64,000 bases of DNA, from positions 15,651 through 79,650 of IMG/VR virus record IMGVR_UViG_2563366977_000001. The stretch is one strand, 5' to 3'. This document shows positions 2,983 through 61,068 of this stretch, piece by piece (position 1 is the first letter of the stretch; each line of letters starts with the position of its first letter). The position numbers were made by a program, and so were the translations under genes. The notes under the pieces are model-generated. The model was not told the origin of the DNA. It did not search any database and saw nothing but the letters and a program-made list of their open reading frames with translations. Source of the stretch: a virus (taxonomy: Duplodnaviria > Heunggongvirae > Uroviricota > Caudoviricetes).

Positions 2983-3113
2983 GGTTAAACCCTAAATTCG
3001 GGCGCGGCGTGAAGATTCTTTTGACGAGGTGACAATACTCACTTTGTTATTTAGTCAATAGCATTAGAAAAATAATTTTCGTTAACAATCTTGTGTTAGT
3101 ATGGTTTAATCTT

Positions 3114-3126
3114 AATTTTCTAACAT
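3114..3126 (+). promoter_or_regulatory. Recurrent operator-like motif AATTTTCTAACAT, 16 bp upstream of ORF 3142
   Basis: One instance of a motif found at 12 or more promoter-proximal sites in the window; variant copy in opposite orientation at about 3062-3074. Confidence 0.45.
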
Positions 3127-3141
3127 AAAGCATTAGAACAA

Positions 3142-3534
3142 ATGGCGTACAAGATCTTCGTTTCATACAAAAATGGTGCTAAAAGCCATTCTCTGAATAC
3201 AAGCAGCAGATGCCTTGTAGAAGCTCAACTGTCATCAATCCTTACTGAAAGAGACATTCTTTCCCTGGCTGAACGGATCGTGATTCTCCATTCAGGAAAG
3301 GCTATTCTTAATGTTCCCGCGCTTACCCCGCCTTCTGACGTTTTGGCATCTGTTAAGTGGCCTCAAATTGGCACGCCTGTAAGAGTGGAAGATCCTGTAA
3401 CGACCACTCTTTATATGCCGAAGTCAGTAAGGGATTGGCTTGCTGCGGTTGGTAATGGGAAGGTCAGCGCGGGGCTTAGGAAGCTGGTTGAAATGGCTGA
3501 TATTCCGGAGCTGAAAAATGCATGGAGACAGTGA
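3142..3534 (+). CDS. Hypothetical protein
   Basis: 130-aa ORF preceded by operator-like motif; no recognisable domain. Confidence 0.35.
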   Translation: MAYKIFVSYKNGAKSHSLNTSSRCLVEAQLSSILTERDILSLAERIVILHSGKAILNVPALTPPSDVLASVKWPQIGTPVRVEDPVTTTLYMPKSVRDWLAAVGNGKVSAGLRKLVEMADIPELKNAWRQ

Positions 3535-4004
3535 GTAGAGGAAACATGAGTCACGCGAACCCATCGAAAACACAATATCGTTTAATGCTGGCTATCGCGT
3601 CAGCTATACCAACCAGCCTGAATCCACCCGCTGGCTATCCCGCTATTGTTGATGATTGTTTTCAGTATTACGGTGAAGACATCCTGAGTCAGTCTAAGGC
3701 ACTCAAACAGTTATGCAAGGCAGGCATTCTTCACTGCATAGGCGATCCAGATGATTTTGTAGTCATGCTGGCAGATCGTGACTCTTTTCTGCTGTCCTGG
3801 AAAGCCGGGGCGCGCGAAGCGCGTTTGGGTAATGGTATTGGCTACATCGACTATAGCGATTGTCCGCTGGCATTTGCTGGTGGATATATGCATTGGCATG
3901 AGCGAAATAGAGGCCGTCAGCGCCAGTATCGCTTGAGTGACTTTAACGTCTGTCACGGTTTCGAAGAAGCTGACAGCCAGGACATCTGGCTTCAGGAGCC
4001 TTAA
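3522..4004 (+). CDS. Hypothetical protein
   Basis: 160-aa ORF overlapping the previous ORF by 13 nt. Confidence 0.35.
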   Translation: METVSRGNMSHANPSKTQYRLMLAIASAIPTSLNPPAGYPAIVDDCFQYYGEDILSQSKALKQLCKAGILHCIGDPDDFVVMLADRDSFLLSWKAGAREARLGNGIGYIDYSDCPLAFAGGYMHWHERNRGRQRQYRLSDFNVCHGFEEADSQDIWLQEP

Positions 4005-5765: not shown

Positions 5766-5829
5766 CTAACACCTCCTTTTTCTTAAATCTTCTCCACTTT
5801 GTGATTTTCACTCTTCAGATTTCTTACTT

Positions 5830-6000
5830 CTCATATTTGTCTCTGATTTGTCTCAAACTGGTATCGTGGGCACATCATGTATCATCTAAGTCTCTTTTGT
5901 GTCTCTCTTGCGTCTCTAGTTTGATGCTTTTTACGCTATCTAACTTCTGGTCTTATTTTGTTTTCTCATATAAAATTCAATTCTTTCTCAAATGTGTCTC
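5830..6000. repeat. parC-like centromere: at least 6 GTCTC-containing iterons upstream of parM
   Basis: Repeated TTGTCTC / TGTGTCTC / GCGTCTC in AT-rich leader before ParM start. Confidence 0.45.
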
Positions 6001-6014
6001 AGAAGTGGAGCAAT

Positions 6015-6974
6015 ATGATGCGCATTTTTATCGACGATGGTTCTACCAATATCAAAATGCTGTGGGAACAAGACGGGGAAACTCGAACCCATATCTGTCC
6101 GAACAGTTTTAAACGTGGATGGTCCGCCACATTTGGCGCAGGAAAGCCGTTTAACTACATCATTGATGACGAAAAATATTCATATGACTTGATCTCGCCG
6201 GATGTGCTGCCGACGAATAACGTTGAATGGCAATACAGCCCGCTTAATGTGCTTGCTGTTCATCATGCCCTGCTTACAAGTGGCATTGAGCCTCAAGAAG
6301 TGGAAATAGTTGTCACGTTGCCACTGGCAGAGTTTTATGACGACGACGCACAATACAACATGAAAAATATTGAGCGGAAAAAGGCCAGCCTGATGCGACC
6401 AGTCACCCTTAACAAAGGTCAGGTTTTTACTATCAAAAAAGTGACTGTGCGCCCGGAGTCAATACCCGCAGGGATCGGTCTGTGCGACAGCCTTGTGCCA
6501 GCGCATTCTGTGCTTATTGTTGATCTTGGTGGGACTACTCTGGATGTGTCGATGGTCGCCGGGCAAATGACCGCCGTTTCTCGCGTATTTGGCGATTCTA
6601 ATCTCGGCGTTTCGCTGGTAACTAAAGAGGTCAGACAGGCACTTGCAAAAGCGAATACCGAAACCTCTAATTATAATGTCGATCAATTAATCATTAATCG
6701 TGATGATGAGGATTATTTGACCGACAATATTAACGATCCGTCTGCTATTGATGATGTTAAGAAAGCCATTTCGTCAAGCATAGAACGACTCCGTACACGC
6801 GTACTGGATGTGATCAGTGATTTCAAAGGATACACGCATGTTATGGTCATTGGTGGCGGCGCGCCGCTTGTTGCTGATGCTATCCGTGAGCAGGTAAACA
6901 TTCGTGACGATAGGTTTTTCGTTGCTGATGATCCACAACTTGCTCTTGTCTATGGTCTAAAATCTATCGGTTGA
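6015..6974 (+). CDS. parM: ParM/StbA actin-like plasmid segregation ATPase
   Basis: ORF trimmed to ATG 6015 with GTGGAG RBS; N-terminal IDDGSTNIK motif and DLGGTTLD phosphate-2 motif. Confidence 0.8.
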   Translation: MMRIFIDDGSTNIKMLWEQDGETRTHICPNSFKRGWSATFGAGKPFNYIIDDEKYSYDLISPDVLPTNNVEWQYSPLNVLAVHHALLTSGIEPQEVEIVVTLPLAEFYDDDAQYNMKNIERKKASLMRPVTLNKGQVFTIKKVTVRPESIPAGIGLCDSLVPAHSVLIVDLGGTTLDVSMVAGQMTAVSRVFGDSNLGVSLVTKEVRQALAKANTETSNYNVDQLIINRDDEDYLTDNINDPSAIDDVKKAISSSIERLRTRVLDVISDFKGYTHVMVIGGGAPLVADAIREQVNIRDDRFFVADDPQLALVYGLKSIG

Positions 6975-38393: not shown

Positions 38394-38419
38394 AGAAGCC
38401 CGCTCAACCAAGCGGGCTT
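38394..38419. terminator. Bidirectional hairpin terminator (GAAGCCCGCT-N6-AGCGGGCTTC)
   Basis: Perfect 10-bp stem between convergent doc and ORF 38472..39269. Confidence 0.6.
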
Positions 38420-38471: not shown

Positions 38472-39269
38472 TTAGGCGTCAGCATCAGCATCCTCTGCTT
38501 CCACATCTGCCGCGACTTCATCGGACTGTTCTTCTTTGGCCTGTTCTGCAATCGCCGCACGGCATTTCGCCCTGGCTGTAGCGATGGCCTCAACTTTCAC
38601 GTCATTAGGAATACTTGAGGTGACATACATATCCAGTTCTTCAGCACGGAATACTGTTTTGTCCAGGAATTCATCAAGCATCCAGGTTAAGGAAAAGTCG
38701 CAGGAAATCAGCTCTACTTCGCCTTCCGCGCCGTTTGGGAAATGGATAAACATCTGCTTGCCCAGGCCAAGCACGCGACAAGCAGCCATCATTACTGCAA
38801 GTTCCAGGTCTTTGTTTTCACCTGCTACTGGTTGATCCACACCAGTAATAGTGCCGTTCAAATGGATATTATATGGCTGATATTTAGAGATGCGTTCTAC
38901 ACGCCATGTGCCGGTTAAGGTTCCCTGGCGGAAGATTATTGGCGTGACCGAAAGCGACAGCTCTCGAATGAGTTGTTGCGCTATGGCTGGGTCATACAGG
39001 GGATCTAACGCGATGCATCCATAAGATTGCGCCAGTTCAAACAATTCTTCCTGTGTGCACTGAATGCCTCTTGCCGTAATAAAACGTCTGACTCCCGTTT
39101 TCCCATCACGCCAGATAGCAATGCCATTCTCACTATCTAACTCTTCGTCTAAGCCCAGGTATGTAAGGATGGTTCGCTCAATGGTAGCAAAGGGCAGGGA
39201 CATATCATCGTTTACATCCACCAGCAGGCCATTACGCAGGCGATATTGAATGTTTTTGGTATTTTCCAC
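38472..39269 (-). CDS. Hypothetical protein with acidic C-terminal tail
   Basis: 265-aa ORF ending in a D/E/A-rich tail. Confidence 0.4.
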   Translation of the reverse strand: MENTKNIQYRLRNGLLVDVNDDMSLPFATIERTILTYLGLDEELDSENGIAIWRDGKTGVRRFITARGIQCTQEELFELAQSYGCIALDPLYDPAIAQQLIRELSLSVTPIIFRQGTLTGTWRVERISKYQPYNIHLNGTITGVDQPVAGENKDLELAVMMAACRVLGLGKQMFIHFPNGAEGEVELISCDFSLTWMLDEFLDKTVFRAEELDMYVTSSIPNDVKVEAIATARAKCRAAIAEQAKEEQSDEVAADVEAEDADADA

Positions 39270-39275
39270 GTTAAA

Positions 39276-39911
39276 TCACTCCACAACAAACCAGTCACAG
39301 GCCAGTAAATCATCCACAGACGGCAACCAAACGCTGTCCATATTTTGTGCATCTTTCAATACAAAATGGTCACCATAAGGAACGTGAATGCCGTGTAAAT
39401 TGACGCTTCCAGCGAGAACTAACCAGCAGAATTGCTTTTCGCCTTTCCACTCGCGTCGGGCAACTTTCTTGCCTTCCTTCAACCACATTAGCGCGTCAGA
39501 GAAGTCGGCTGCTTCAAGGTCGATTTCTTCTTGTGTGGTAATGATGCCACCGGCAGCAATAGTTACGTCCCTGGCTGTAATGAATGTCACCCCATTGTGA
39601 CCTTCAATGCTGAGCGATACCCCATTTTCGGAGGCGTCGTTAACCCGGCTATAGCATTTTTCAAATGCTTTCTCTGGCACATAGACCAGATAGCCATTTT
39701 CAGCAGTGACGAGATATCCTCCTATTTGCGGTCGGAATTTTTCCAAGAACACACCATCAACACGAAGCGTCATTCCTTTTGGCTCAACGACTTCGATACT
39801 GCCAAAAATGGGCGCATAAGCTTCGCCGACAATAACAATATCTTTGATTTTCGATGCCCGAATGATGCTGTGGCATTTGTATTTGGGGAACACCTGAAAA
39901 GTGCTGACCAT
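39276..39911 (-). CDS. DUF2829 (Tad2-like) domain protein with 135-aa N-terminal extension
   Basis: C-terminal ALMWLKEGKKVARREWKGEK ... VWLPSVDDLLACDWFVVE matches DUF2829 signature. Confidence 0.55.
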   Translation of the reverse strand: MVSTFQVFPKYKCHSIIRASKIKDIVIVGEAYAPIFGSIEVVEPKGMTLRVDGVFLEKFRPQIGGYLVTAENGYLVYVPEKAFEKCYSRVNDASENGVSLSIEGHNGVTFITARDVTIAAGGIITTQEEIDLEAADFSDALMWLKEGKKVARREWKGEKQFCWLVLAGSVNLHGIHVPYGDHFVLKDAQNMDSVWLPSVDDLLACDWFVVE

Positions 39912-39925
39912 AATCCTTCCTCTAC

Positions 39926-40420
39926 TTAAAACTTTGCGTACTGAAGCGGTGTACGCTTGATTTCAACGCGGTCTTCCGATGTGCTACCAAAGCCACCAGC
40001 GCCTCGCTCTGTTTCATCGAGTTCATCAACTTCTACCAGCGATACCGGTTCAACACGCTCAAAAATGCCTTGCATGACCGCCATTCCTGGCTTGAGGCAA
40101 ACGCCTTCACCACCGGGATCTGTAATCAGTTTTGCCATGATTTCACCGCGATAATCGGAGTCGATAATTCCTACGCAGTTAGCCAGGCGCGTATGCTTTT
40201 TGCAGCCCAATCCGGAACGAGGATAAAGTTTCAGACACCAGCCAGGAGGGATCGCCATAGCGAGGCCGGTATGCACCCACCAGCTTGAGGAAATAGCGCC
40301 GTTGCTATCGATACCCGGCGTTATTTCAACAGCAACAAAATCCATCGCCGCCGATCCGGCGGTGGCGTAAACGGGGAGTTTTGCCGCCGGATGAAGGCGT
40401 TTCACTTTCACGTTAATCAT
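39926..40420 (-). CDS. dut: dUTP diphosphatase (trimeric dUTPase)
   Basis: Motifs AGSAAMD, PRSGLG, GIIDSDYRGE and C-terminal RGAGGFGSTS. Confidence 0.8.
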   Translation of the reverse strand: MINVKVKRLHPAAKLPVYATAGSAAMDFVAVEITPGIDSNGAISSSWWVHTGLAMAIPPGWCLKLYPRSGLGCKKHTRLANCVGIIDSDYRGEIMAKLITDPGGEGVCLKPGMAVMQGIFERVEPVSLVEVDELDETERGAGGFGSTSEDRVEIKRTPLQYAKF

Positions 40421-40905
40421 TGCTTTTTAGCTCTCCGGGTAAATGTATAAATCCGGCGTTTGATATGCGGAGCGGTCGGAACGGAGACGCAGGTATTCTC
40501 GATAACACCTTGTTCCTCCAGCGATCGCACAGCACGCAAGAACTGTGATGCATCACCACCGCCAGACAGCCAGAATTTGCGGGCATAGACGCTGCCATTA
40601 CGGATAATTTCTGCGATCACCCGCGCTTGCGTCTGGCTTTCTCGATAGCCAAAGAGTTCTCTTGCCTCTCCTTGTGGGATAGCCAACTGATAGCCTTTCC
40701 CGCTACGGTGACGAACAAAACCGTGAGCAATGAGGTTCTTCAGCTCATTTCTGGTGCGGATACACCCGTACTCAGGGAACTGTGTGTTGATATCACCAGG
40801 CTTATGCCATTCATCAGGACTATCAGCCAGGAGGGACAGAAGTTTCCCTGACAGCTCAGGATTAGTGGTTGGATAACAGTTCAGGGATGGGTAGTAAGTT
40901 TTCAT
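40417..40905 (-). CDS. Hypothetical protein
   Basis: 162-aa ORF overlapping dut start by 4 nt. Confidence 0.4.
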   Translation of the reverse strand: MKTYYPSLNCYPTTNPELSGKLLSLLADSPDEWHKPGDINTQFPEYGCIRTRNELKNLIAHGFVRHRSGKGYQLAIPQGEARELFGYRESQTQARVIAEIIRNGSVYARKFWLSGGGDASQFLRAVRSLEEQGVIENTCVSVPTAPHIKRRIYTFTRRAKKQ

Positions 40906-41246
40906 TTGCGCCCCCTTGCCGGATAGCGCCCGGCATTCGCATCAGGGGCAATGAAGCCGCTGGTGGGGCGAGTGAAAACATGGTTAATTTTCTCGGTCAT
41001 AGCGCGATAATTTTCCTGATAGTGGGCCAGGAGTTTTTCAGCAGCAATGACGGTTACTTTCCGGACGTAGCGTTCAGCTTCCTCCAGATTTCGCCAGTTT
41101 TTTTCGAGGGTAAATACGGGAACGGCATCAAGTCCGGTCATAACACCGAACACCACGACCGCCTGGTCGCGCTTAACGCCCGCAGTGAAGGTTATGGTGT
41201 AACCGTCAACAGTGAAGCGTTTTGATTCCGTAATACGATTGTGCAA
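40902..41246 (-). CDS. Hypothetical protein downstream of recombinase (P1 cra position)
   Basis: 114-aa ORF; listed start is TTG inside a hairpin, true start uncertain. Confidence 0.3.
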   Translation of the reverse strand: MHNRITESKRFTVDGYTITFTAGVKRDQAVVVFGVMTGLDAVPVFTLEKNWRNLEEAERYVRKVTVIAAEKLLAHYQENYRAMTEKINHVFTRPTSGFIAPDANAGRYPARGRK

Positions 41247-41318: not shown

Positions 41319-42347
41319 TTATGAATCCATCAGGCGACTATTTGCACCAACGGATGCCCCGCTACGGCGCAAATATCGCATAAGTGTTTCGGGCTTTTTC
41401 CATGTGCCTTCCTGCATGATCTCGACCATTGACACCTGTTTCTCAGCCATATCAATTGCCGCACCAACACGCGCACTATGGCCTGTCCACGTCCGGTATC
41501 TTCCCTTGTTCGGCGTGGCATCTCGTTTGTTCAGCAACCCCCAGGCATCGCTGAATATTTTCTCCATTGCAGGTGCAGTAAGGGGCGTTGTCGTGATTCT
41601 GGCCTTATTACTGCGGTGTATTGGCGGGAATAGCACCGCGTCCGGATGTTCTCGAAGTCCGGACACCTCCAGCCAGTCGTTCAGTACGGCGGTAGTGTAA
41701 CGAGAAAGCACCTTATCAAGTCCGGCGGCGGTCGTGATGGTCTTCGTGTGTGAAATATGCAGCGTTACAGTGTCACCTGTTTGGTCCAGATCTCCGACGC
41801 GGATGCGCGAGATTTCTGACATACGCATCAGGGTATTGTATGCCACGAAGAGAAACGCCCGATTGCGCAGGTCCACCAGCCGCTCGGAACGGGAAAGCAA
41901 CACGTCGAGCAATTTCAGATCATCCCACCGCAACGGTATAGCCTGGCCTGTTCGCTCACCTTTTTCCGTTGCCGCTTCGCGCCGGATGCGCCGCATGGCC
42001 AGAGACACACTTTTATCGTCCGACAGCGGCGGGAGGCCACATTGCGAAAGCAGCATGTTAAGCATGGCATAGTGCTTATCAATGGTGGTCGAGGCCAGAT
42101 CGGCCTCATGCAACTGGAGAAGATACTCGCGGGCCATTTCCGGCGTAATCGGGAACCAGGGGTGCTGGCGCGAATTACACCACCGCGCCCAGGAATGAAA
42201 CACCAGACGGAGATCTCGAAGCGTATTTGGGGCATAAGCTCCCTGGTCGTTCATGAACTGCATAAAGTTTTTTGCAGCTTCCTGGTATTCGGTGCCTATA
42301 TCGCGCAGAAAACCACCAGAACCGCCGGAGATAACTAGTTCACCCAT
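41319..42347 (-). CDS. cre: Cre-family tyrosine site-specific recombinase (Dre-like)
   Basis: 342 aa; colinear with P1 Cre (SWARWC, LNML, RN.AFL..AYNTL, TKT, GHSARVGAA, C-terminal Tyr in RYLRR). Confidence 0.9.
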   Translation of the reverse strand: MGELVISGGSGGFLRDIGTEYQEAAKNFMQFMNDQGAYAPNTLRDLRLVFHSWARWCNSRQHPWFPITPEMAREYLLQLHEADLASTTIDKHYAMLNMLLSQCGLPPLSDDKSVSLAMRRIRREAATEKGERTGQAIPLRWDDLKLLDVLLSRSERLVDLRNRAFLFVAYNTLMRMSEISRIRVGDLDQTGDTVTLHISHTKTITTAAGLDKVLSRYTTAVLNDWLEVSGLREHPDAVLFPPIHRSNKARITTTPLTAPAMEKIFSDAWGLLNKRDATPNKGRYRTWTGHSARVGAAIDMAEKQVSMVEIMQEGTWKKPETLMRYLRRSGASVGANSRLMDS

Positions 42348-42499
42348 GAAACTATTAAACCTCTATATACAGATAACGCTACGTGAAAAATAGAAAACTG
42401 ACAGGGTAGTTATAAGTTAATTTTCAAAATTCAAGCCTTTGATTCGAGGCATGATTTTTCATCCTTGTCAATACTACCTGTTTACTGGAGATTATAGCC

Positions 42500-42531
42500 T
42501 AACTTTAAATAATGCCAATTATTTAAAGTTA
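42500..42531. other. lox-type recombination site (rox-like)
   Basis: TAACTTTAAATAATGCCAATTATTTAAAGTTA perfect palindrome; readable as 13-8-13 (arm CTAACTTTAAATA vs loxP ATAACTTCGTATA, 9/13); 150 bp upstream of recombinase. Confidence 0.8.
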
Positions 42532-48582: not shown

Positions 48583-48658
48583 TGGTGGCCCCTACCGGAC
48601 TTGAACCGGTGACCGTGCGATTATGAGTCGCCCGCTCTAACCACTGAGCTAAAGGGCC
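48583..48658 (-). tRNA. tRNA with CAU anticodon, most similar to tRNA-Ile2 (lysidine) rather than tRNA-Met
   Basis: Hand-folded cloverleaf: acceptor GGCCCTT/AGGGGCC, anticodon arm GGCGA-CTCATAA-TCGC, T-loop GGTTCAAGTCC, 3' CCA. Confidence 0.75.
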
Positions 48659-49087
48659 AGATTACTGTTAATTACGCTTACGCTTTTTGCCAGAACCGCG
48701 TAAGGCTTTTGCCGCTTGCTCTACCCCGTATGCAACCACCAGCAGAAACAATAATGTCCACTCCGGGTTTTTATCGGCAAACGCCCAAAAATCCATCACT
48801 TGCAGCCACCTTTTAAGACAAAACGCCATTGCTGTTAGGTTGCGGTGCCGGGTGCCTCCCGGTGACGTTAACCAGTTAACAATTAACGCCGGATCACTTA
48901 TGGATTCTCGTTACGCCAGTAAAAAGACCACCTTTACTGTTTTAACTGTTCCGCGTGCGCTTAGCCGCATTCACCGCAATGGTAAGAGCATTTGGCTGAC
49001 TGGGCGGCGATGACGCCTGTACGCATTTGGTGATCCGGTTCTGCTTCCGGCATTCGCTTAATTAGCCAAATACTCTTAACGTTGCGA

Positions 49088-49174
49088 TGGCGGAGAGTAA
49101 TGGAATCGAACCATCATCGCTTGCGCGACGGGACGGTTTTCAAGACCGCTTGAGCACCATGCTCCCTACTCTCC
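49088..49174 (-). tRNA. tRNA-Ser (UGA anticodon), long variable arm
   Basis: Acceptor GGAGAGT/ACTCTCC, discriminator G, anticodon loop CTTGAAA, 17-nt variable arm, T-loop TTCGATT, CCA. Confidence 0.6.
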
Positions 49175-49415
49175 AGTGATTGTGGTGGTCGGTACTGATC
49201 TCCGACTGCGCCTCTTTTTTTCATAGCCCATAAGGCCGGTCAGTGCGCTTGATGACTGAGGCATCGATATTTACTACGCCGCCTCGTTGCCATAGGGCGG
49301 ACTTGCGCGCCAGCAACGCGCATTCACCACAACGGAAAGAGCATTTATGGCTCGCATCGCGGGAAAAAGCCCACGGTAGAGAGTCGAACTCTACAAATGC
49401 TCTTACCTGTTGTGT

Positions 49416-49491
49416 TGGTGCCGGTTAACGGGATCGAACCGCTGACCATTCGCTTACAAAGCGACTGCTCTACCAACTGAGCTAAACCGGC
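49416..49491 (-). tRNA. tRNA-Thr (UGU anticodon)
   Basis: Acceptor GCCGGTT/AACCGGC, D-arm AGCTCAGTTGGTAGAGC, anticodon loop TTTGTAA, T-loop GGTTCGATCC, CCA. Confidence 0.8.
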
Positions 49492-49495
49492 AATT

Positions 49496-49582
49496 TGGTG
49501 GGGAGTGATGGAGTCGAACCACCCGAGTCGCAATGACAGTAGATTTACAGTCTACACCGCTACCTCTACGGACTAACTCCCC
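49496..49582 (-). tRNA. tRNA-Tyr (GUA anticodon)
   Basis: Acceptor GGGGAGT/ACTCCCC, anticodon arm GTAGA-CTGTAAA-TCTAC, long variable arm, CCA. Confidence 0.8.
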
Positions 49583-49587
49583 TAAAT

Positions 49588-49662
49588 TGGCGATGGTGGG
49601 TGGATTCGAACCACCGACCAGTTGGTTAACAGCCAACTGCTCTACCGCTGAGCTACACCATC
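49588..49662 (-). tRNA. tRNA-Asn (GUU anticodon)
   Basis: Acceptor GATGGTG/CACCATC, anticodon arm GTTGG-CTGTTAA-CCAAC, T-loop GGTTCGAATCC, CCA. Confidence 0.85.
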
Positions 49663-54216: not shown

Positions 54217-57200
54217 TTAGGCCGCATCGGCGATTATTTTACGCAGTTCATCTACCGAGTAACGCGTAGATACCATCCATGCCGGACGGTCAAAGTTCAC
54301 ATCAGCAACCGGGTTTGCTTCAAAATTCCAGAAACGCCCGCCAATCTTCTTAATCGCGTCTTTGGCGTTCCGTATTGTCGAGGAACCTGGTTGGTCGGCA
54401 ATGAGATAAACCGCACCGACGTCCTCGCTGACGCTCCACCAGCGCCCGCGAACACGCGCCTTCGCGCGAATCGGCTTATCATTAACCACAATGATATAGT
54501 CATCATTCGCCGCTTCATCAGCTCTGGCTTCAGCCACTGCCGCCTGCTCTTCTCTTTTGCTTTCAGCCTGTTCAAGCCTTTCCGCGATCTCTGATTCGGT
54601 GGCCCCGCCGTTTTTCAGCGATACATAGTCTTGCCACGTTGCTGATTTGAGCGCATCCGGCAACTCATTCACATAGTCACCGTCTTTCAACTCACGGGCG
54701 CGGCGGGTAGCCATTTCTACCAGGCGATTAACAGAAACAGCATCAGCAAAATCGTCCTTACTAATGTGTTTTTCATCAAATGCATTGATGACAGCCCCCA
54801 CCTTAATCCACTGTGCTGCCGGTGATTCCAGGGGGTTATCAGCCTGGACAATGGCGAGTTTCGCTCCATCTACCCCATTATTCGCCAACTGTTCCAGTGC
54901 CGCCCATCCATCTGCATCACTGAGTGATTTATATTGCTCAAACAATGCATCGCGCCAGGCCGCCAGCGCAGAACGTGTTTTTTCGATCTTCGTCTTAATT
55001 TTCGCGATCTTGACCTGATTAAACATCCGTTCAATATCATCGATATTGCTAAAGGCTTTCATCCTGCCCTTGAATAAACGGTATGCCAGCACGGTCCTCC
55101 AGAATGATTCCAGACCTTCTCCGGACGGTTTGCGGAACAAGCTAAGAATATCTTCAGAAGTGACTTTATTAAGCGAACGACCTGACAGACCACGCCCAGC
55201 CATCCAGTTTTCGAACTCCTGGGCAACATCATCCATCGTTGCCTGTGCGCCCCATGCCTGCATTCCCTGGATGTAATCATACCCATACAATGCCTGGAGG
55301 AATCCCTCACCGTCCACGATATTCAGCGGGTTATCACTGGCTTGTATTTTTGCCACTTCACGCTTCAGCGCCTCATCGTTGCCATCTGGATATATCCATC
55401 GTTCAGGTACTATATCCGATGCTCGCCCGATTTTTTGGCCTATCACGCCATCATAGGCCGATGACAGCGCGATCTGACCATCATCTGTGCGATATGCCCA
55501 GTATTTAATAGCTGACCCACCGCCCCATGCATTACCAGGTTTACCAGCAATAACATTCATTACCCCATTGCGAATAGCATCATAGAACTGATCGCGAGTA
55601 AGTATTGTTGATAGCTGGTGGCACTGAACACCACGCGCAGCCGTTGCGCGCGATTCAGCTACCCCCTCTTCAAAAGTTACCGCTTCAATCACAGAGTCAA
55701 ACGGCAATGTAACGATTGACCCCGGTGATCGAGCGTAACGACTTGCTCTATCCAGCCAGGCGATACGGCAGAGGTATTGTGCTTTTTCACCGTCAATTTT
55801 TTCCACCCGGACAATCGCTGTTGTTTCGCGATCATCAATGACTGCACGGTAATAACTACCTTTATGCAACAGGATATTCTTGTCAGTGCGCATATATTCC
55901 TGTGGGTTCTGAATAACATCGATACTGATATCCAGCACACCAGACTTAATAGCGCGCTCCACATCACCACGAGAGCGTTTCATTATGGTATCCGCGTCTT
56001 TTGCCCTGGTGATCGCAAACCGCAGCACCCGCGCACGTTTTCTGTAGCTACTCAACTGCTCAAGCGCGAATTTTTGCCCATTCCTGTTCGTACCCGCTTT
56101 TATCAGGTCGTCAAGATTTCGCTGGTAATACTCTATCTGTTCCATCGCGCTTTTCAGTTCTGTCTCCATCATGCCGATATCTTTTCCAGCGGCGTTTGCC
56201 GCTTTCAGGTAGATATCGAGAGCATTGTTGGCCTCGCGCTGTGCTTTCAGTTTCAGACGTTCTTCACGCTCTTGCGCCTGGCGAGCCATGATTGCGCGGC
56301 GTTCTTCCGGGTTTGCCGCCAGCATAATGGCGCGTTCATCAGCATCATCCGCATCACCATTGGCGATCTCTGACATGTCGGAGGTCATCACCATCTTGAT
56401 CCAGTCTTTCTTACGTTTCAGCGTATCCAGACGGAAGTCGTCGAATGTGCCTTTGCCACAATAGTAGTGAACATTGACCTTCTCTTGCGGTGAACCTACG
56501 CGCGCACCGCGCCCATTTCGTTGGTCGATACTGGCTGGTGTCCAGGGTAGTGTCAGGTGGTGGATATCGGTTGTCCCGATATGCAGGTTAATACCTACTT
56601 CAGCCTTCTTGTTACAGATAATGATGCGCGTGCGCCCTTCGTTATAGTCGGCGGCAATGCCTTCCATACCCTCAAGGCCAGCATCATTTTTAGCTGAGAG
56701 ATAATCCTCATATTGGGCAAGTTTGCTGTAGTAGGTTTCCCATGCCCCTTCTTTGTATTCACCGTTTTTATTCGGAGTAGGTTCAGTCGGCTTATTCACC
56801 TTCTTCAGCTTGATGCCGCCAGCCTGGCTAACGGTCGTCGCATTGATAATGCCTATCTCCTGCTCCGGCATTTGCAGTGCACTGGCGATAATACGGCGCA
56901 GCTTCTGGTGCTGGGCTTTTTCATCAATGAAGACAATTTGTTTACCGTTCTTCAGACCTTCACGAAGGTTTTCGATCAGCGCGGCATACTTCGGCGGGAT
57001 GGGGTGTGATACCTGCTGCAGATCAATCCCGGCGGCAGCAATGGCCTTCAGTATTTCAGCTTCCAGTTCAATGCTGGCACGTATTTCAACATGCGCCGGA
57101 TGTTCACTAAAGGTGGTCTTCACTACCTTACTGGTGCGCGTACTAACCAGCCCACCAGCGCCGTCTTCTTCGGCCTCGTCTGCATCATCTGCCACTTTAC

Positions 57201-60200
57201 CGCCAGCTACTTTTGGCAGGGCATCAGCAATAGCTTTTACCTTGTCTGCAAGCTCAACGGGGAACTGGAATGTAATCGCACTGGCATACAGATCCGGATC
57301 TATAGCAACCTTATCCATGTCGCGGATGATGGAGAAGATGAAATCATCCGGTTTTTCGTTTGTGATATGCCCGTTTTCATCAACCGTCAGCGCATCTTTA
57401 CTACTTAACTCCTGTGCACGCTTACGAAGCTCTTCATAAGCAGCCTCCTGCTCCCCTGTCATCGGGATCTGCAAGGTATTCTCGACAATATCAGGGATTT
57501 TAACCGTCGCCCCGACGTCCGCAGCAGTCTTCAGAGTAGTCCAGCGATGGAAAATACCACGCAGGCCATCAAGGTTCTGGAAGCCAACCAGCCCCTGCTT
57601 CTCTTCCACTTCCCCGGAAATTTTCTGGACCTGAACTGTGGCTGTTTTACCAAACACACGAACGAAATCATCAGGCGTAATGATGCCCATGCGCATCCAC
57701 TCTTCCTGCGGAATGACAGTAGACAGCATGTTGAAGGCATCAATCGGACTGTTCACCAGCGGTGTTGCCGTCAGCATGACTACACCACGCCCGTTGTTGC
57801 GTTTCATCATGTACGCAGCTTTTACAGCCATGTCGCGGGCCATCTTGGATACTGCCGGGTTAGGCAAATATGCCAGTTGTCCCGCTTCACGCCCGGCATT
57901 AAAGGAGTTGCGGTAGTTATGCCCCTCGTCGGCAATCACGCTATCGAAGTTCATATCCTCAAAGTACGGGATATTCTGCTTCTTCGTTGTACCGGTATTC
58001 GCGGCCTGATCCTTAATCTTGTTCTTCTTCTGCGCATCACGGTGTTTACCAGACGCCAGGTCAAGACGCCCCATTTCCACAGCATTAAAGACAGCTTGCT
58101 GTGAGTTCTCCTCGATGGTTTTTTCTCGTAGCGGGATAGACGCGAATTGTTCTTTTGTCATGATGACCGTTCGCCAATTTGACGACGGGATCATGTTCAT
58201 GCGCTGAACGATAACGGCGCTGGCGGACTCTTTCACAACATTTCTGGTAAGAGGCTGCCCGTTACTGTCGAGGCGTGGTTCGCCATTTTCATCAAGCACC
58301 GGCGCGGTCAGAATATTTCCGCTGTCATCACGAACTTCATCCAAACCGATAAACATCATATTGGCGAAGGCATCAGCACTGTAGAAACTCTGTGCCTCGT
58401 GATACCAGTTCTGATAAACCGCCTTCGGAACAACAATACACGTGCGTTTAGTGCGACCTGTTTCGAAGTTATACGCCTCAAGCGCAAGCGCGGTCGTGGT
58501 TTTACCCAGCCCGGTACCAAATCCCATGATGCCGCGCCCATCTTCTGACAAGCGACGAACTTCTTCATTCTGATAAGTCAGAGGAATGCGCTTTCCACTA
58601 ATCCCTTCCAGGCCAAGCGGTGCGTTAGAGTGCGTGAACGGAATGAAGCCATTGAATGCGTCGTTATAGTCACGGGCTATCTGATCCGCCTGCGGGTGGG
58701 TGCGTAACCAGTCGTTAAAGCTAACTTCCAGTTGAGCAATTTTATCCAGGTACTCGTTAGCGTTCTGCCCACGCGGTTTAACACCGTTCAGGTAGTTTTC
58801 TAACTGGTTCAGGAAGCCGTCTTTATTGTTGGCCTTCTTGAACTCATTCCCGTTTTTGCCGTTTACGGTTCGTAGTTGATAGCCGGTAAATACCCCGTCC
58901 TTACCTTCGTAATCGTCCGGAGATACCAGAATGCCATCGACGACCTTCAGATCAGGTTCAGTGTACTTAAACTCGTCATAGCCCTGCTCTGCCAGGAACT
59001 CTTTTATCAAGCGGCGATCCAGCCAGCGGGCGTTCAGATTAACGGTGACTTTATTTAGTGGCGTGAAAATGCGTTTCTCTTCGATTTTCGCCAACTGACG
59101 CTCAAAGTTCGCTTTCTGTTCACCTGTTGACGCATCACGCCAGCCCACCAGCAATGTTGTTTTGGTTGCAATATCGCCGCTGGTGGCGCGGTCCATCGGC
59201 AGCAGGCAGCCATACCCATCAATAGCGATATCATCAAATTTCGCCAGGTATTCAAGGGCCGCGTCGTCGTCCTCTGGCAGTTCACCAGCAAACGCCTCAC
59301 GAAAGTCGCCCAGCGTTATAGGATTAAGGGCTACATCACTGAAAAGATGTGCTATCACTTGTTCCGGACGTGTAAAGTCAATACCGGCAGCACCATCCGT
59401 TACATCAAGTCGCCCTGCCAGAAGGTCAGAAGTGGAACCATCCTGTTTCACATTGCCAGTGAACGTCATCCAGTTTTTAGCGCCAGCTTCAGCAAGCCCA
59501 TTCAGCTTAATCGCGTGCGGTGGTCCATACTTCGCAACTTCTGCTGCCGCCAGGCGGGATGCATCTGCCAGTTTGTCATCAACGTTCACCCCCAGGTTAC
59601 GCAAATCAAGTGCCTTGTTGATCAACTGCCCTATCAACGCACCGCGCATAACGCGCTCCCTGTCTTTTTCTCGCTGTTTGCCAGCAAAGCGAATCATTGC
59701 TGCCACTTCATCACTGACAACCGATGGATAGTCGGACGCGATCGCCGATATCTGGTCCCATGACAAAGCCAGAATCCCGTTTGTTGACTGGAATGCGATC
59801 TGCAGATCGCCAAACGTCGAAACACCATATCGACTTACATCAAGCGCGGAGGATTTGGTTGTCGTGTCCTTAACCCATTTCAGGCCATCAAACTCATGCC
59901 AGATACCGCCTACAAGACGCTTATCCCCTACTTTTGCGCCCTGCCATGCCTGGGTAGTTACTCCGAGCAAATCCCAATTAATACGGCTTTCAAAGCGGCG
60001 TGATAACGCGGTTTTCATCGACTCATTGGATACACGACCGTCCTTTTTCACCACCAGGGTATTGCGGAAGCTGGTGCGTTCCATGTCGCCGTAAACAAAT
60101 CGCTTCCCTTCGGTTGTAAACCATTTCCCTTTGAGGAAGGTATCCCAAAGGACGTTTGCCGATTTGAGCGTTGCATCATCCGTGTCGGGGATCATCTCCA

Positions 60201-61068
60201 GGAAGGTTTCCGGGTGTTTACGCAATACCCATACGTCCACCACGGTATCTGTACCGGACTCGCTGAACGTACCAGAAGGCATACGATGCGCGCCCAAAAA
60301 TTCCGCTTTACGGCTGACTTTATCGCGCAATTTTTTGTATTTCGTACCATCGGTCATGCCATTCGGCACCACCAATACAATTAGTCCACCAGGCTTAACC
60401 TTGTCGATCGTGCGCAGCACAAAATAATTGCCAACGTTCTTCTCGTTTGCATATGCCGGATCAAGCCCGGCGACGCCGGAACGCCCTTCGCCAAACGGTA
60501 CGTTACCAACTGCGTGGTCATACATTGCATCTTTCGCCGCCAGCGCCTCAAACGCCCCGATATTCACATCATCTTCCGGGTGCAAAAGCTGGTTTATTCG
60601 ACCGGAGATCGGAGACAGTTCGGCGCTGGTCATTATCATGCCCTGCCGTTTTGTCTCCTGGAAAATACCTGTGCCTGCTGACGGTTCCAGTACGTGACCG
60701 CTATCAATACCGTAGTCGCCGAAGAGATCCCATATACCTTCTGCCATAAACTGTGGCGTATAGTATTCGTATTGGCTGCCCTCACCATCTGTCAGGCCGC
60801 CTTCACCGGTATACCCGGCAAGAATCTGGCGCTGTTCGTCAGTTAATTTCGCCCCATCGAAGCCAGGCGGAAGGGAATTAAGAAGATTTACTGCGGCGTT
60901 GTTTGCTGCCCGGCGTGTTTTCTGAATACTGACGCCATCGACTTTCTTAACGCCAAAGGTCACTACAGCTCGCGGTTTATGCAACCGACTAACAATTTCA
61001 ATCAGCGCCCCAATGCTGGTGGCCTGGCTAATTGAATCAATTATTTTGTCCAAAGGAAGCCCCCTCAA
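54217..61068 (-). CDS. darB: DarB-like giant methyltransferase-helicase (capsid-packaged anti-restriction protein in P1)
   Basis: 2283 aa; N-terminal MTase motifs (LEPSAGTGIF, NVPF), central helicase Walker A GFGTGLGKTT and DEGH box. Confidence 0.85.
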   Translation of the reverse strand: MRGLPLDKIIDSISQATSIGALIEIVSRLHKPRAVVTFGVKKVDGVSIQKTRRAANNAAVNLLNSLPPGFDGAKLTDEQRQILAGYTGEGGLTDGEGSQYEYYTPQFMAEGIWDLFGDYGIDSGHVLEPSAGTGIFQETKRQGMIMTSAELSPISGRINQLLHPEDDVNIGAFEALAAKDAMYDHAVGNVPFGEGRSGVAGLDPAYANEKNVGNYFVLRTIDKVKPGGLIVLVVPNGMTDGTKYKKLRDKVSRKAEFLGAHRMPSGTFSESGTDTVVDVWVLRKHPETFLEMIPDTDDATLKSANVLWDTFLKGKWFTTEGKRFVYGDMERTSFRNTLVVKKDGRVSNESMKTALSRRFESRINWDLLGVTTQAWQGAKVGDKRLVGGIWHEFDGLKWVKDTTTKSSALDVSRYGVSTFGDLQIAFQSTNGILALSWDQISAIASDYPSVVSDEVAAMIRFAGKQREKDRERVMRGALIGQLINKALDLRNLGVNVDDKLADASRLAAAEVAKYGPPHAIKLNGLAEAGAKNWMTFTGNVKQDGSTSDLLAGRLDVTDGAAGIDFTRPEQVIAHLFSDVALNPITLGDFREAFAGELPEDDDAALEYLAKFDDIAIDGYGCLLPMDRATSGDIATKTTLLVGWRDASTGEQKANFERQLAKIEEKRIFTPLNKVTVNLNARWLDRRLIKEFLAEQGYDEFKYTEPDLKVVDGILVSPDDYEGKDGVFTGYQLRTVNGKNGNEFKKANNKDGFLNQLENYLNGVKPRGQNANEYLDKIAQLEVSFNDWLRTHPQADQIARDYNDAFNGFIPFTHSNAPLGLEGISGKRIPLTYQNEEVRRLSEDGRGIMGFGTGLGKTTTALALEAYNFETGRTKRTCIVVPKAVYQNWYHEAQSFYSADAFANMMFIGLDEVRDDSGNILTAPVLDENGEPRLDSNGQPLTRNVVKESASAVIVQRMNMIPSSNWRTVIMTKEQFASIPLREKTIEENSQQAVFNAVEMGRLDLASGKHRDAQKKNKIKDQAANTGTTKKQNIPYFEDMNFDSVIADEGHNYRNSFNAGREAGQLAYLPNPAVSKMARDMAVKAAYMMKRNNGRGVVMLTATPLVNSPIDAFNMLSTVIPQEEWMRMGIITPDDFVRVFGKTATVQVQKISGEVEEKQGLVGFQNLDGLRGIFHRWTTLKTAADVGATVKIPDIVENTLQIPMTGEQEAAYEELRKRAQELSSKDALTVDENGHITNEKPDDFIFSIIRDMDKVAIDPDLYASAITFQFPVELADKVKAIADALPKVAGGKVADDADEAEEDGAGGLVSTRTSKVVKTTFSEHPAHVEIRASIELEAEILKAIAAAGIDLQQVSHPIPPKYAALIENLREGLKNGKQIVFIDEKAQHQKLRRIIASALQMPEQEIGIINATTVSQAGGIKLKKVNKPTEPTPNKNGEYKEGAWETYYSKLAQYEDYLSAKNDAGLEGMEGIAADYNEGRTRIIICNKKAEVGINLHIGTTDIHHLTLPWTPASIDQRNGRGARVGSPQEKVNVHYYCGKGTFDDFRLDTLKRKKDWIKMVMTSDMSEIANGDADDADERAIMLAANPEERRAIMARQAQEREERLKLKAQREANNALDIYLKAANAAGKDIGMMETELKSAMEQIEYYQRNLDDLIKAGTNRNGQKFALEQLSSYRKRARVLRFAITRAKDADTIMKRSRGDVERAIKSGVLDISIDVIQNPQEYMRTDKNILLHKGSYYRAVIDDRETTAIVRVEKIDGEKAQYLCRIAWLDRASRYARSPGSIVTLPFDSVIEAVTFEEGVAESRATAARGVQCHQLSTILTRDQFYDAIRNGVMNVIAGKPGNAWGGGSAIKYWAYRTDDGQIALSSAYDGVIGQKIGRASDIVPERWIYPDGNDEALKREVAKIQASDNPLNIVDGEGFLQALYGYDYIQGMQAWGAQATMDDVAQEFENWMAGRGLSGRSLNKVTSEDILSLFRKPSGEGLESFWRTVLAYRLFKGRMKAFSNIDDIERMFNQVKIAKIKTKIEKTRSALAAWRDALFEQYKSLSDADGWAALEQLANNGVDGAKLAIVQADNPLESPAAQWIKVGAVINAFDEKHISKDDFADAVSVNRLVEMATRRARELKDGDYVNELPDALKSATWQDYVSLKNGGATESEIAERLEQAESKREEQAAVAEARADEAANDDYIIVVNDKPIRAKARVRGRWWSVSEDVGAVYLIADQPGSSTIRNAKDAIKKIGGRFWNFEANPVADVNFDRPAWMVSTRYSVDELRKIIADAA

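Follow-up and report, generated by a model that had tools for sequence, protein, structure and literature searches.

Does the fusion of a Tad2-family domain to a second module give a phage a signal sponge, and does the dUTPase gene next to it take part? We examined this question at one locus in a 64,000-nucleotide stretch of viral DNA (the window). A sequence-only reading had taken an ORF at 39276..39911 and the adjacent dUTPase gene for a candidate anti-defence pair. The ORF is real: it encodes 211 aa on the minus strand, and both peptide strings quoted in that reading lie within its translation. The gene and its parts are as follows.

39276..39911, minus strand: fusion gene, 211 aa, predicted to encode a Dec-like OB-fold, a spike-like linker and a Tad2 sponge domain; in the ORF listing it starts with ATG at 39911 and stops with TGA at 39276-39278
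39636..39911, minus strand: residues 1-92, an OB-fold with homology to that of phage L Dec (PDB 6E3C)
39516..39635, minus strand: residues 93-132, β-rich linker, in collinear alignment with the C-terminal spike through which Dec forms trimers
39279..39515, minus strand: residues 133-211, Tad2/DUF2829 domain carrying the derived "WK" allele, in which the β2-β3 region is short

Over the fusion-gene region, identity is 95-98% with E. coli plasmids of about 90 kb that are not mobilisable, and 79% with phage D6. These identities place the window among the phage-plasmids of the P1 family, as a D6-like member. The window also encodes humD, phd/doc, a Cre-like recombinase and a DarB-like giant ORF, all of which fit this assignment. 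Its pacase-like genes are putative: their identity comes from a syntenic plasmid, NZ_CP085065, in which one of them bears the annotation "DNA pacase A subunit", and a Pfam scan gave no match for either. No site matching the P1 C1-operator consensus ATTGCTCTAATAAATTT with three or fewer mismatches was found in the window.

The Tad2 domain and its pocket residues

The DUF2829 signature that the earlier reading placed in the C-terminal 75 aa was recovered by Pfam PF11195 ("Tad2-like"), which covers residues 136-210. The match has an E-value of 2.9e-18 and a score of 66.6 bits, and it spans the full length of the model (positions 2-73 of 73). This score is so far above the cut-off of 25 that a chance match is ruled out. 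With phmmer, the closest PDB sequences were ModTad2 (9EIB, 7.8e-11), Tad2 8V3E (1e-10) and SPO1 Tad2 (8SME, 5e-6). We collected 94 homologues of the fusion protein, and DUF2829 is the annotation wherever the source gives a name; RefSeq likewise annotates the gene as encoding a DUF2829 protein.

An AlphaFold2 (AF2) model built from 33 homologues contains two confident domains with a low-confidence linker between them. Across residues 133-211 the pLDDT is approximately 77-92, and the model shows the N-terminal helix and antiparallel β-sheet of Tad2, superposable on the solved structures. Foldseek matched these residues to 9EIB (E=2e-7, TM 0.77 on the target, with 38-42% identity to ModTad2), to 8V3E (TM 0.89 on the target) and to SPO1 Tad2 (8WJE, E=1.5e-6). 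Judged by these matches and the predicted fold, the C-terminal domain is a genuine Tad2-family member in which one tested contact residue is changed.

Yirmiya et al. list six ligand contacts in SPO1 Tad2, which correspond to the following residues of the window protein.

SPO1 W25: W155 (codon 39447-39449), kept
SPO1 N26: K156 (codon 39444-39446), changed
SPO1 W73: W195, kept
SPO1 S76: S198, kept
SPO1 T78: D200, changed
SPO1 D79: D201, kept

Four of the five main contact residues (W155, W195, S198 and D201) are kept, and their columns are invariant in the 33-sequence alignment. The Asn of the W-N-G motif, which contacts phosphate (N26 in SPO1 Tad2, N22 in HgmTad2), is absent and is replaced by Lys. 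In HgmTad2, mutating this Asn jointly with the Trp abolished binding.

This W-K state was found in at least 21 of the 94 relatives; nearly all others are W-N, and one is W-P. In the W-K relatives the β2-β3 region always spans 38 residues, and VDD or VAD always stands ahead of a conserved LL; spacings in the remaining relatives range from 32 to 55 residues. The 38 residues of the window protein compare with 46-47 in SPO1 Tad2, MoTad2 and Tad2_68, while HgmTad2 has about 64. The insert is shortened by 9 residues, to less than in every solved or tested Tad2 whose spacing was measured. The W-K allele is coupled with a 9-residue deletion, with a change of G to E at position -1 and with a change of G to D or A beside D201. 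Read from the alignment, W-K is a derived state, here confined to elements of Escherichia and Salmonella.

We then considered which ligand this domain might bind. Compared with the proteins in Table S2 of Hadary et al. 2025, the Tad2 domain is 41% identical to Tad2_68, which blocks Thoeris of types I and II, 39% identical to MoTad2, which blocks type II Thoeris and Pycsar, and 35% identical to SPO1 Tad2. Its closest clade is the one inhibiting type II Thoeris. Closely related plasmids carry a sister allele (allele b, with WNG) that is 68% identical to Tad2_68, and their OB region is 99% identical to that of the window. Three W-P homologues in the screen of Hadary et al. 2025 inhibited none of the systems testable for them, and one W-S homologue was active. 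Peptides of the window protein had no match in the supplements of that study, so the protein is absent from the tested proteins listed in them. Tad2 proteins bind at least six kinds of signal, including 3'cADPR, His-ADPR, N7-cADPR, cyclic dinucleotides and cUMP/cCMP. Given this range and the change of Asn to Lys at a contact position, gcADPR cannot be assumed as the ligand, and homology alone does not fix what the window protein binds. The short β2-β3 region of the WK allele makes it less likely that this allele has a second pocket, the one for cyclic dinucleotides or cUMP.

The Dec-like N-terminal region

The N-terminal 135 aa had been described as an unknown domain fused to the DUF2829 domain. 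The fusion holds; "unknown" does not, since sequence and fold matches identify a Dec-like OB-fold and a spike-like segment. Searches of the N-terminal domain against Pfam and NCBIfam returned nothing even at E≤10. By all methods used, the top match to the N-terminal part was Dec (6E3C): E=3.6e-3 for the OB domain with Foldseek, E=0.001 for the OB domain with phmmer, E=2e-4 for a profile of the OB family, and E=1e-8 in a pairwise BLASTP comparison with full-length Dec. Residues 1-90 modelled alone had a pLDDT of 90. Lockin was considered as an identity for the OB module and is unlikely: the structure that tops the PDB fold search is Dec rather than anything Lockin-like, and Lockin has been reported missing from complete phage genomes.

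The BLASTP alignment carries on through residues 93-132 into the Dec spike. Within this segment TARDVTIAAGG of the window protein aligns with TARTITLTGAV of Dec, and the two have a TAR-x-(I/V)-T motif in common. In the monomer model residues 93-132 have a pLDDT below 50 and short predicted strands. The last ~40 residues of Dec are unfolded in the monomer and fold only in the trimer (PMC11398494), which fits the low single-chain confidence of this segment. In their aligned sequence, residues 93-132 resemble the Dec trimer spike.

A profile search with the OB domain retrieved 4,895 clusters (50% identity) at E≤1e-3, mostly of 80-200 aa. The family has no Pfam entry and consists mostly of stand-alone proteins of 80-120 aa (~90 aa) with a strongly conserved motif, CHK...KHxPxxGGYxVVYEDGYxSYSPAxAFExGY. 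The OB domain of the window deviates from it at several near-invariant positions, with S in place of K15, N in place of D71 and V in place of S75 and S77. Five giant adhesins at the top of this search (P0095-97, P0118 and P0135) were discarded as spurious. Of these, only P0095 was scanned, and it consists of Ig/cadherin repeats matching part of the profile; the other four share its pattern of many stretches that each match a partial profile.

Among the 142 best non-giant representatives, the Pfam domains that recur as fusion partners are Sequestin PF21825 (14 proteins), Tad2 PF11195 (13) and Acb4 PF13876 (4), and no others recur. Experiments have validated all three as signal sponges, and it was fusions to Tad2 and Acb4 that led to the discovery of Sequestin (bioRxiv 2025.07.12.664507). 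Three relatives of the window protein (P0067, P0104 and P0127) have Sequestin at the C-terminus, and one (P0050) is fused to a tail-fibre N-terminus. At 46 distinct loci in IMG/VR, roughly three in four OB genes stand alone. Six of the 103 proteins examined there as neighbours or C-terminal extensions are Acb4 (3), Tad2, Sequestin or an Acb2/Tad1 hairpin. The OB genes of cultured phages lie amid small early or moron-type genes, away from capsid genes. A few OB homologues are annotated "capsid decoration protein", a label transferred by similarity only.

Neighbouring genes and module exchange

Six closely spaced genes form a leftward string here: first a cre-like gene, then two small ORFs, next dut followed by the fusion gene, and last an isaA-like gene. 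The features around the fusion gene are listed below.

41319..42347, minus strand: Cre-like tyrosine recombinase, first gene of the string (PF00589, PF02899; annotated in D6 as "similar to P1 gene cre")
40417..41246, minus strand: two small overlapping ORFs of 162 and 114 aa, like orf116 and orf117 of D6 (phrog_6669, phrog_1968), between the cre-like gene and dut
39926..40420, minus strand: trimeric-type dUTPase, 164 aa (PF00692, NCBIfam dut equivalog, phrog_135)
38472..39269, minus strand: isaA-like gene, 265 aa, beginning 6 nt past the fusion-gene stop, 47% identical to IsaA of SJ46
42491..42518, minus strand: promoter-like site TTGGCA-16-TATAAT upstream of the cre-like gene, 11 of 12 positions matching, by consensus match only
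38398..38413, minus strand: terminator-like hairpin after the isaA-like gene, by consensus match only

The fusion gene had been said to precede a trimeric dUTPase. The neighbour is indeed a dUTPase; the order is the reverse, since both genes lie on the minus strand, where transcription reaches dut before the fusion gene. The dUTPase matches PF00692 (E=3.5e-13), NF001862 (117.2 bits against a cut-off of 103) and TIGR00576 (116.1 against 102.55), and its translation holds motifs I-III and V (AGSAAMD, PRSGLG, GIIDSDYRGE and RGAGGFGST). Its motif IV, GMAVMQ, lacks the usual Arg when compared with E. coli Dut. The fusion gene begins 14 nt past the dut stop and has a Shine-Dalgarno sequence, GAGGAAGGA, ahead of it. 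Junctions within the string are 4-nt overlaps or gaps of 6-14 nt, with the exception of 72 nt after the cre-like gene. A scan for promoters and terminators gave no more sites than expected from shuffled sequence, so the operon boundaries are tentative, as is the single operon that may run from the cre-like to the isaA-like gene.

The isaA-like gene adjoins the fusion gene in D6, in D6-like plasmids and in the Punavirus genomes SJ46 and Ro157c2YLVW. Its product has only 11 close relatives; it matched nothing in Pfam or NCBIfam and nothing significant in PDB by sequence or profile (E≥0.2). In the two Punavirus genomes the order is ssb, fusion gene, isaA, with no dut nearby, and the fusion gene is 64% identical to that of the window. 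The SJ46 fusion gene lies beside hxr, and a neighbour annotated only as "hypothetical protein" is, by P1 gene order, presumably the anti-restriction gene ddrB. Because the Punavirus fusion gene lacks dut and retains isaA, the isaA-like gene is the conserved neighbour. Judged by gene order in these genomes, the conserved unit is the fusion gene plus isaA, and adjacency to dut is limited to the D6 lineage.

We compared the OB, spike and Tad2 core modules across five loci. Plasmid pMUB-MIN14-1 is 99.3% identical to the window in nucleotides over the OB module and 89% over the spike; it carries Tad2 allele b, which is 68% identical over the Tad2 core. NZ_CP085065 shows the opposite arrangement, with 100% identity over the Tad2 core, 73% over the OB module and 66% over the spike. 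The junction EEIDLEAADFSDALMWLK is nearly invariant, with dN/dS of 0-0.08. Between alleles, dN/dS is 0.27-0.49 in both the OB module and the Tad2 core, and allele b of pMUB-MIN14-1 differs from that of SJ46 by synonymous changes only (dN=0, dS=0.17). Thus, the OB, spike and Tad2 modules reassort independently among near-identical plasmids. The low dN/dS in both modules indicates that they are functional coding units under constraint, swapped by recombination. In D6 orf114, an in-frame deletion removes the OB core.

Function of the fusion protein and comparison with known systems

We consider the fusion protein most probably an immune-signal sponge, a modular anti-defence protein of a D6-like phage-plasmid, and give this reading a probability of about 0.6 on its family membership and predicted fold. 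The C-terminal 80 residues would form a Tad2-family sponge that assembles as a tetramer and takes up a nucleotide-derived immune signal in pockets between subunits, such that the host effector would never be switched on. In the WK allele the pocket would be remodelled where Lys takes the place of the phosphate-contacting Asn. The N-terminal 130 residues are most likely a second, independently exchangeable module, which could serve as an oligomerising scaffold or carry an anti-signalling activity of its own. The gene would be transcribed together with the cre-like gene, the two small ORFs, dut and the isaA-like gene. The kept pocket residues, the kinship with Tad2_68 and MoTad2, and purifying selection on both domains support this explanation, as does the position of the Punavirus fusion gene next to Dar/Ddr anti-restriction genes. 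An N-terminal fusion to Tad2 is functional elsewhere, in Acb4-Tad2 of phage Pm86 (bioRxiv 2025.07.12.664507). An automated screening puts the share of phage-plasmids with Tad2 AcrIIA7, listed as anti-Thoeris, at 93% for the D6-like group and 56% for the P1-like group (bioRxiv 2025.09.12.675607). The Tad2-type sponge proposed by the earlier reading is therefore the most reasonable one. Several points weigh against it. The contact Asn is Lys in the window protein, and the W-P homologues that also depart from Asn at this site were inactive in the screen, though the W-S one was active. A trimerising spike ahead of a tetramerising domain would be a symmetry mismatch. Thoeris is uncommon in E. coli, and 93% retention of Tad2 would be puzzling if Thoeris were the sole target.

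The pairing with dut fared differently. That the dUTPase and the fusion protein act as one anti-defence pair is very improbable, even though in D6 and about 100 D6-like plasmids the genes lie side by side and are probably co-transcribed, and a dut-Tad2 fusion protein (P0064) exists. In P0064, dut is joined directly to the Tad2 domain at an "AGG" encoded by both genes, and the protein loses the OB domain along with the FGST part of dUTPase motif V; we read it as a deletion product and not as a selected fusion. Together with the Punavirus fusion genes that stand without dut and the scores of an ordinary dut equivalog, this leads us to reject the dUTPase as a functional partner. The pairing is coincidental, and the dUTPase is an ordinary nucleotide-hygiene enzyme. 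A change of function in the Tad2 domain is a less remote idea, though still an unlikely one: the WK allele might bind another nucleotide, for example c-di-GMP or a host metabolite, and alter the host in the plasmid-prophage state with no role in Thoeris. Its derived state, its restriction to Escherichia and Salmonella elements and its coupling to a deletion and further changes are consistent with this, and Tad2 proteins can bind c-di-GMP from E. coli, cUMP, cGAMP and N7-cADPR. In P1, cre is expressed in lysogens, so that the cre-like gene at the head of the string, like the rarity of Thoeris in E. coli, would suit such a role. However, cyclic dinucleotides or cUMP bind in a second pocket that requires a long β2-β3 insert, where the WK allele has 38 residues, and the Trp, Trp, Ser and Asp of the canonical pocket are all kept.

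The remaining alternatives concern the N-terminal region. In one, the whole protein is a Dec-like capsid decoration, with the OB domains as legs on the head of the phage-plasmid and the spike displaying the DUF2829 domain outside. The collinearity of the N-terminal 130 residues with all of Dec speaks for it, as do the tail-fibre N-terminus of P0050 and the few homologues labelled as decoration proteins; as noted above, those labels are transferred by similarity. But the fusion gene has no capsid-gene context of the kind that Dec has: it lies in the cre/dut/isaA string, or by ssb and isaA in Punavirus, with no head-gene module. Most OB family members also lack the spike that Dec needs to bind capsids, and both the OB-deleted copy in D6 and the fusion partners that are intracellular sponges count against decoration, which we regard as improbable. 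It is possible, although we think it has the odds against it, that the Dec-like OB module acts in its own right as a new sponge for immune signals or an inhibitor, and that the protein is a two-sponge fusion like Acb4-Tad2 or Sequestin-Tad2; this would extend the sponge explanation preferred above. By the same guilt-by-fusion reasoning that led to Sequestin, the restriction of recurrent partners to validated sponges points this way. So do the sponge families among the IMG/VR neighbours and extensions, the size of the family, the sponge-like length of its mostly stand-alone members, their conserved motif, their location among small early or moron-type genes, and the independent reassortment of OB alleles under purifying selection. 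On the other side, the window OB domain is off consensus at K15, D71, S75 and S77, D6 has lost the OB core, and the sole characterised homologue, Dec, binds capsids and no nucleotides. Hadary et al. 2025 removed from their screen Tad2 proteins that also carried "PF21825 or PDB 6E3C" domains. The OB-Tad2 architecture had therefore already been noticed and left out of testing, and a sponge-screening group aware of these fusions has reported no activity for them. We accordingly offer only as a tentative proposal that the Dec-like OB family, with its ~4,900 clusters, may be a large counter-defence family that is shuffled apart from Tad2 in P1/D6 phage-plasmids to give combinatorial anti-defence alleles.

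Phage-plasmids of the P1/D6 type are a common find in clinical isolates of E. coli, Shigella and Salmonella, and the gene is retained by nearly every D6-like one. If the protein is an active sponge, its three exchangeable modules and the WK and WN alleles would form a natural series for the evolution of sponge specificity in a tractable host. If the OB module is active itself, a function could be assigned to phage genes that lack annotation and number in the thousands, and guilt-by-fusion would yield another family after Sequestin. The analysis also corrects an easy mis-annotation, in which relatives of the OB domain are labelled "capsid decoration protein" through their similarity to Dec.

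The nearest known genes are D6 orf114 (YP_009914791) and SJ46 gp048, orthologues at the same locus upstream of isaA that are already annotated DUF2829 and counted as anti-Thoeris. Both carry allele b (WNG), in contrast to WK in the window, and D6 orf114 is without the OB core. What appears undescribed is the Dec-like build of these genes in particular, their mosaicism of three modules under purifying selection, the W-K allele with its shortened β2-β3 region, and the confinement of the recurrent OB fusion partners to Tad2, Sequestin and Acb4. The Tad2 domain is in the same Pfam family as SPO1 Tad2 (8SME/8SMF), ModTad2 (9EIB) and Tad2_68, at 35-41% identity, and it has the same α1 helix followed by an antiparallel sheet and the same Trp/Trp/Ser/Asp pocket. 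The classic Tad2 is a stand-alone protein of ~90 aa, whereas the window protein has 211 aa and a 130-residue N-terminal module. In its N-terminal 130 residues it resembles Dec in architecture, with an OB-fold followed by a spike-like segment. Dec, by contrast, ends after the spike, is encoded in the late phage region and binds P22-like capsids, whereas the window protein runs on into Tad2 and is encoded in the cre/dut/isaA string. Acb4-Tad2 of Pasteurella phage Pm86, Tad2-Sequestin and Sequestin-Acb4 likewise join small phage-specific sponge modules (bioRxiv 2025.07.12.664507). In those fusions both halves are sponges, whereas the partner of Tad2 in the window protein is a Dec-like OB module without known sponge activity.

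The dUTPase and its fusion to Tad2

The window dUTPase (39926-40420, minus strand) contains a motif IV with the amino acid sequence GMAVMQ. In the Dut protein of E. coli this motif is GERIAQ, and its arginine is absent from the window protein. Despite this motif IV, the window dUTPase scored above the dut equivalog threshold. A 241-aa E. coli protein related to the products of window 39276-40420 (P0064) is a dUTPase joined to Tad2, with a junction at 'AGG', which is encoded by both parent genes. This protein has neither the OB module nor the spike module, and its dUTPase part is missing FGST of motif V. It is present on 4 contigs, the longest of which is 88.6 kb.

Variants of the OB-spike-Tad2 architecture

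In the type phage D6, the OB core of orf114 (L001, the D6 locus, 5771-6211) was lost by an in-frame deletion. The protein still has residues 1-20 and the spike-like segment, as well as Tad2 allele b. We also found a 306-aa protein from E. coli (P0050) in which a tail-fibre N-terminus with a PF03406 repeat is joined at 'ASKIKN' to an OB-spike-Tad2 protein. This protein is known from one 10-kb contig only and may be the result of a rearrangement or of an error in assembly.

Gp55 of Klebsiella phage SopranoGao (L003, the SopranoGao locus, 2986-3582) is 198 aa long and has an OB-Tad2 architecture (Tad2 E=3e-23). The gene is surrounded by small genes and regulator genes. SopranoGao is a cultured lytic Klebsiella phage and could be a convenient experimental model. 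A0A384WK77, a 394-aa protein in BFVD from Vibrio phage vB_VpaS_KF6, contains a domain that shares this OB fold (Foldseek E=1.1e-3). This protein is annotated as a MazG pyrophosphatase and may represent one more fusion partner related to nucleotides.

A variable island and other features of the window

The plasmid NZ_CP085065, which is 95% identical to the window, carries hsdR, hsdS, and hsdM, which make up a complete type I restriction-modification system, immediately upstream of phd/doc (L002, the plasmid locus, 1-5208). The corresponding window site, upstream of 37784, contains humD and a 140-aa ORF in place of these genes. Thus, a variable island adjoins the anti-defence genes. Two other features were observed in the window:

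48583-49662, minus strand: five clustered tRNA genes (Met, Ser, Thr, Tyr, Asn)
54217-61068, minus strand: an ORF of 2,283 aa that resembles the P1 anti-restriction protein DarB; its domains include those of a methyltransferase and of an SNF2/helicase
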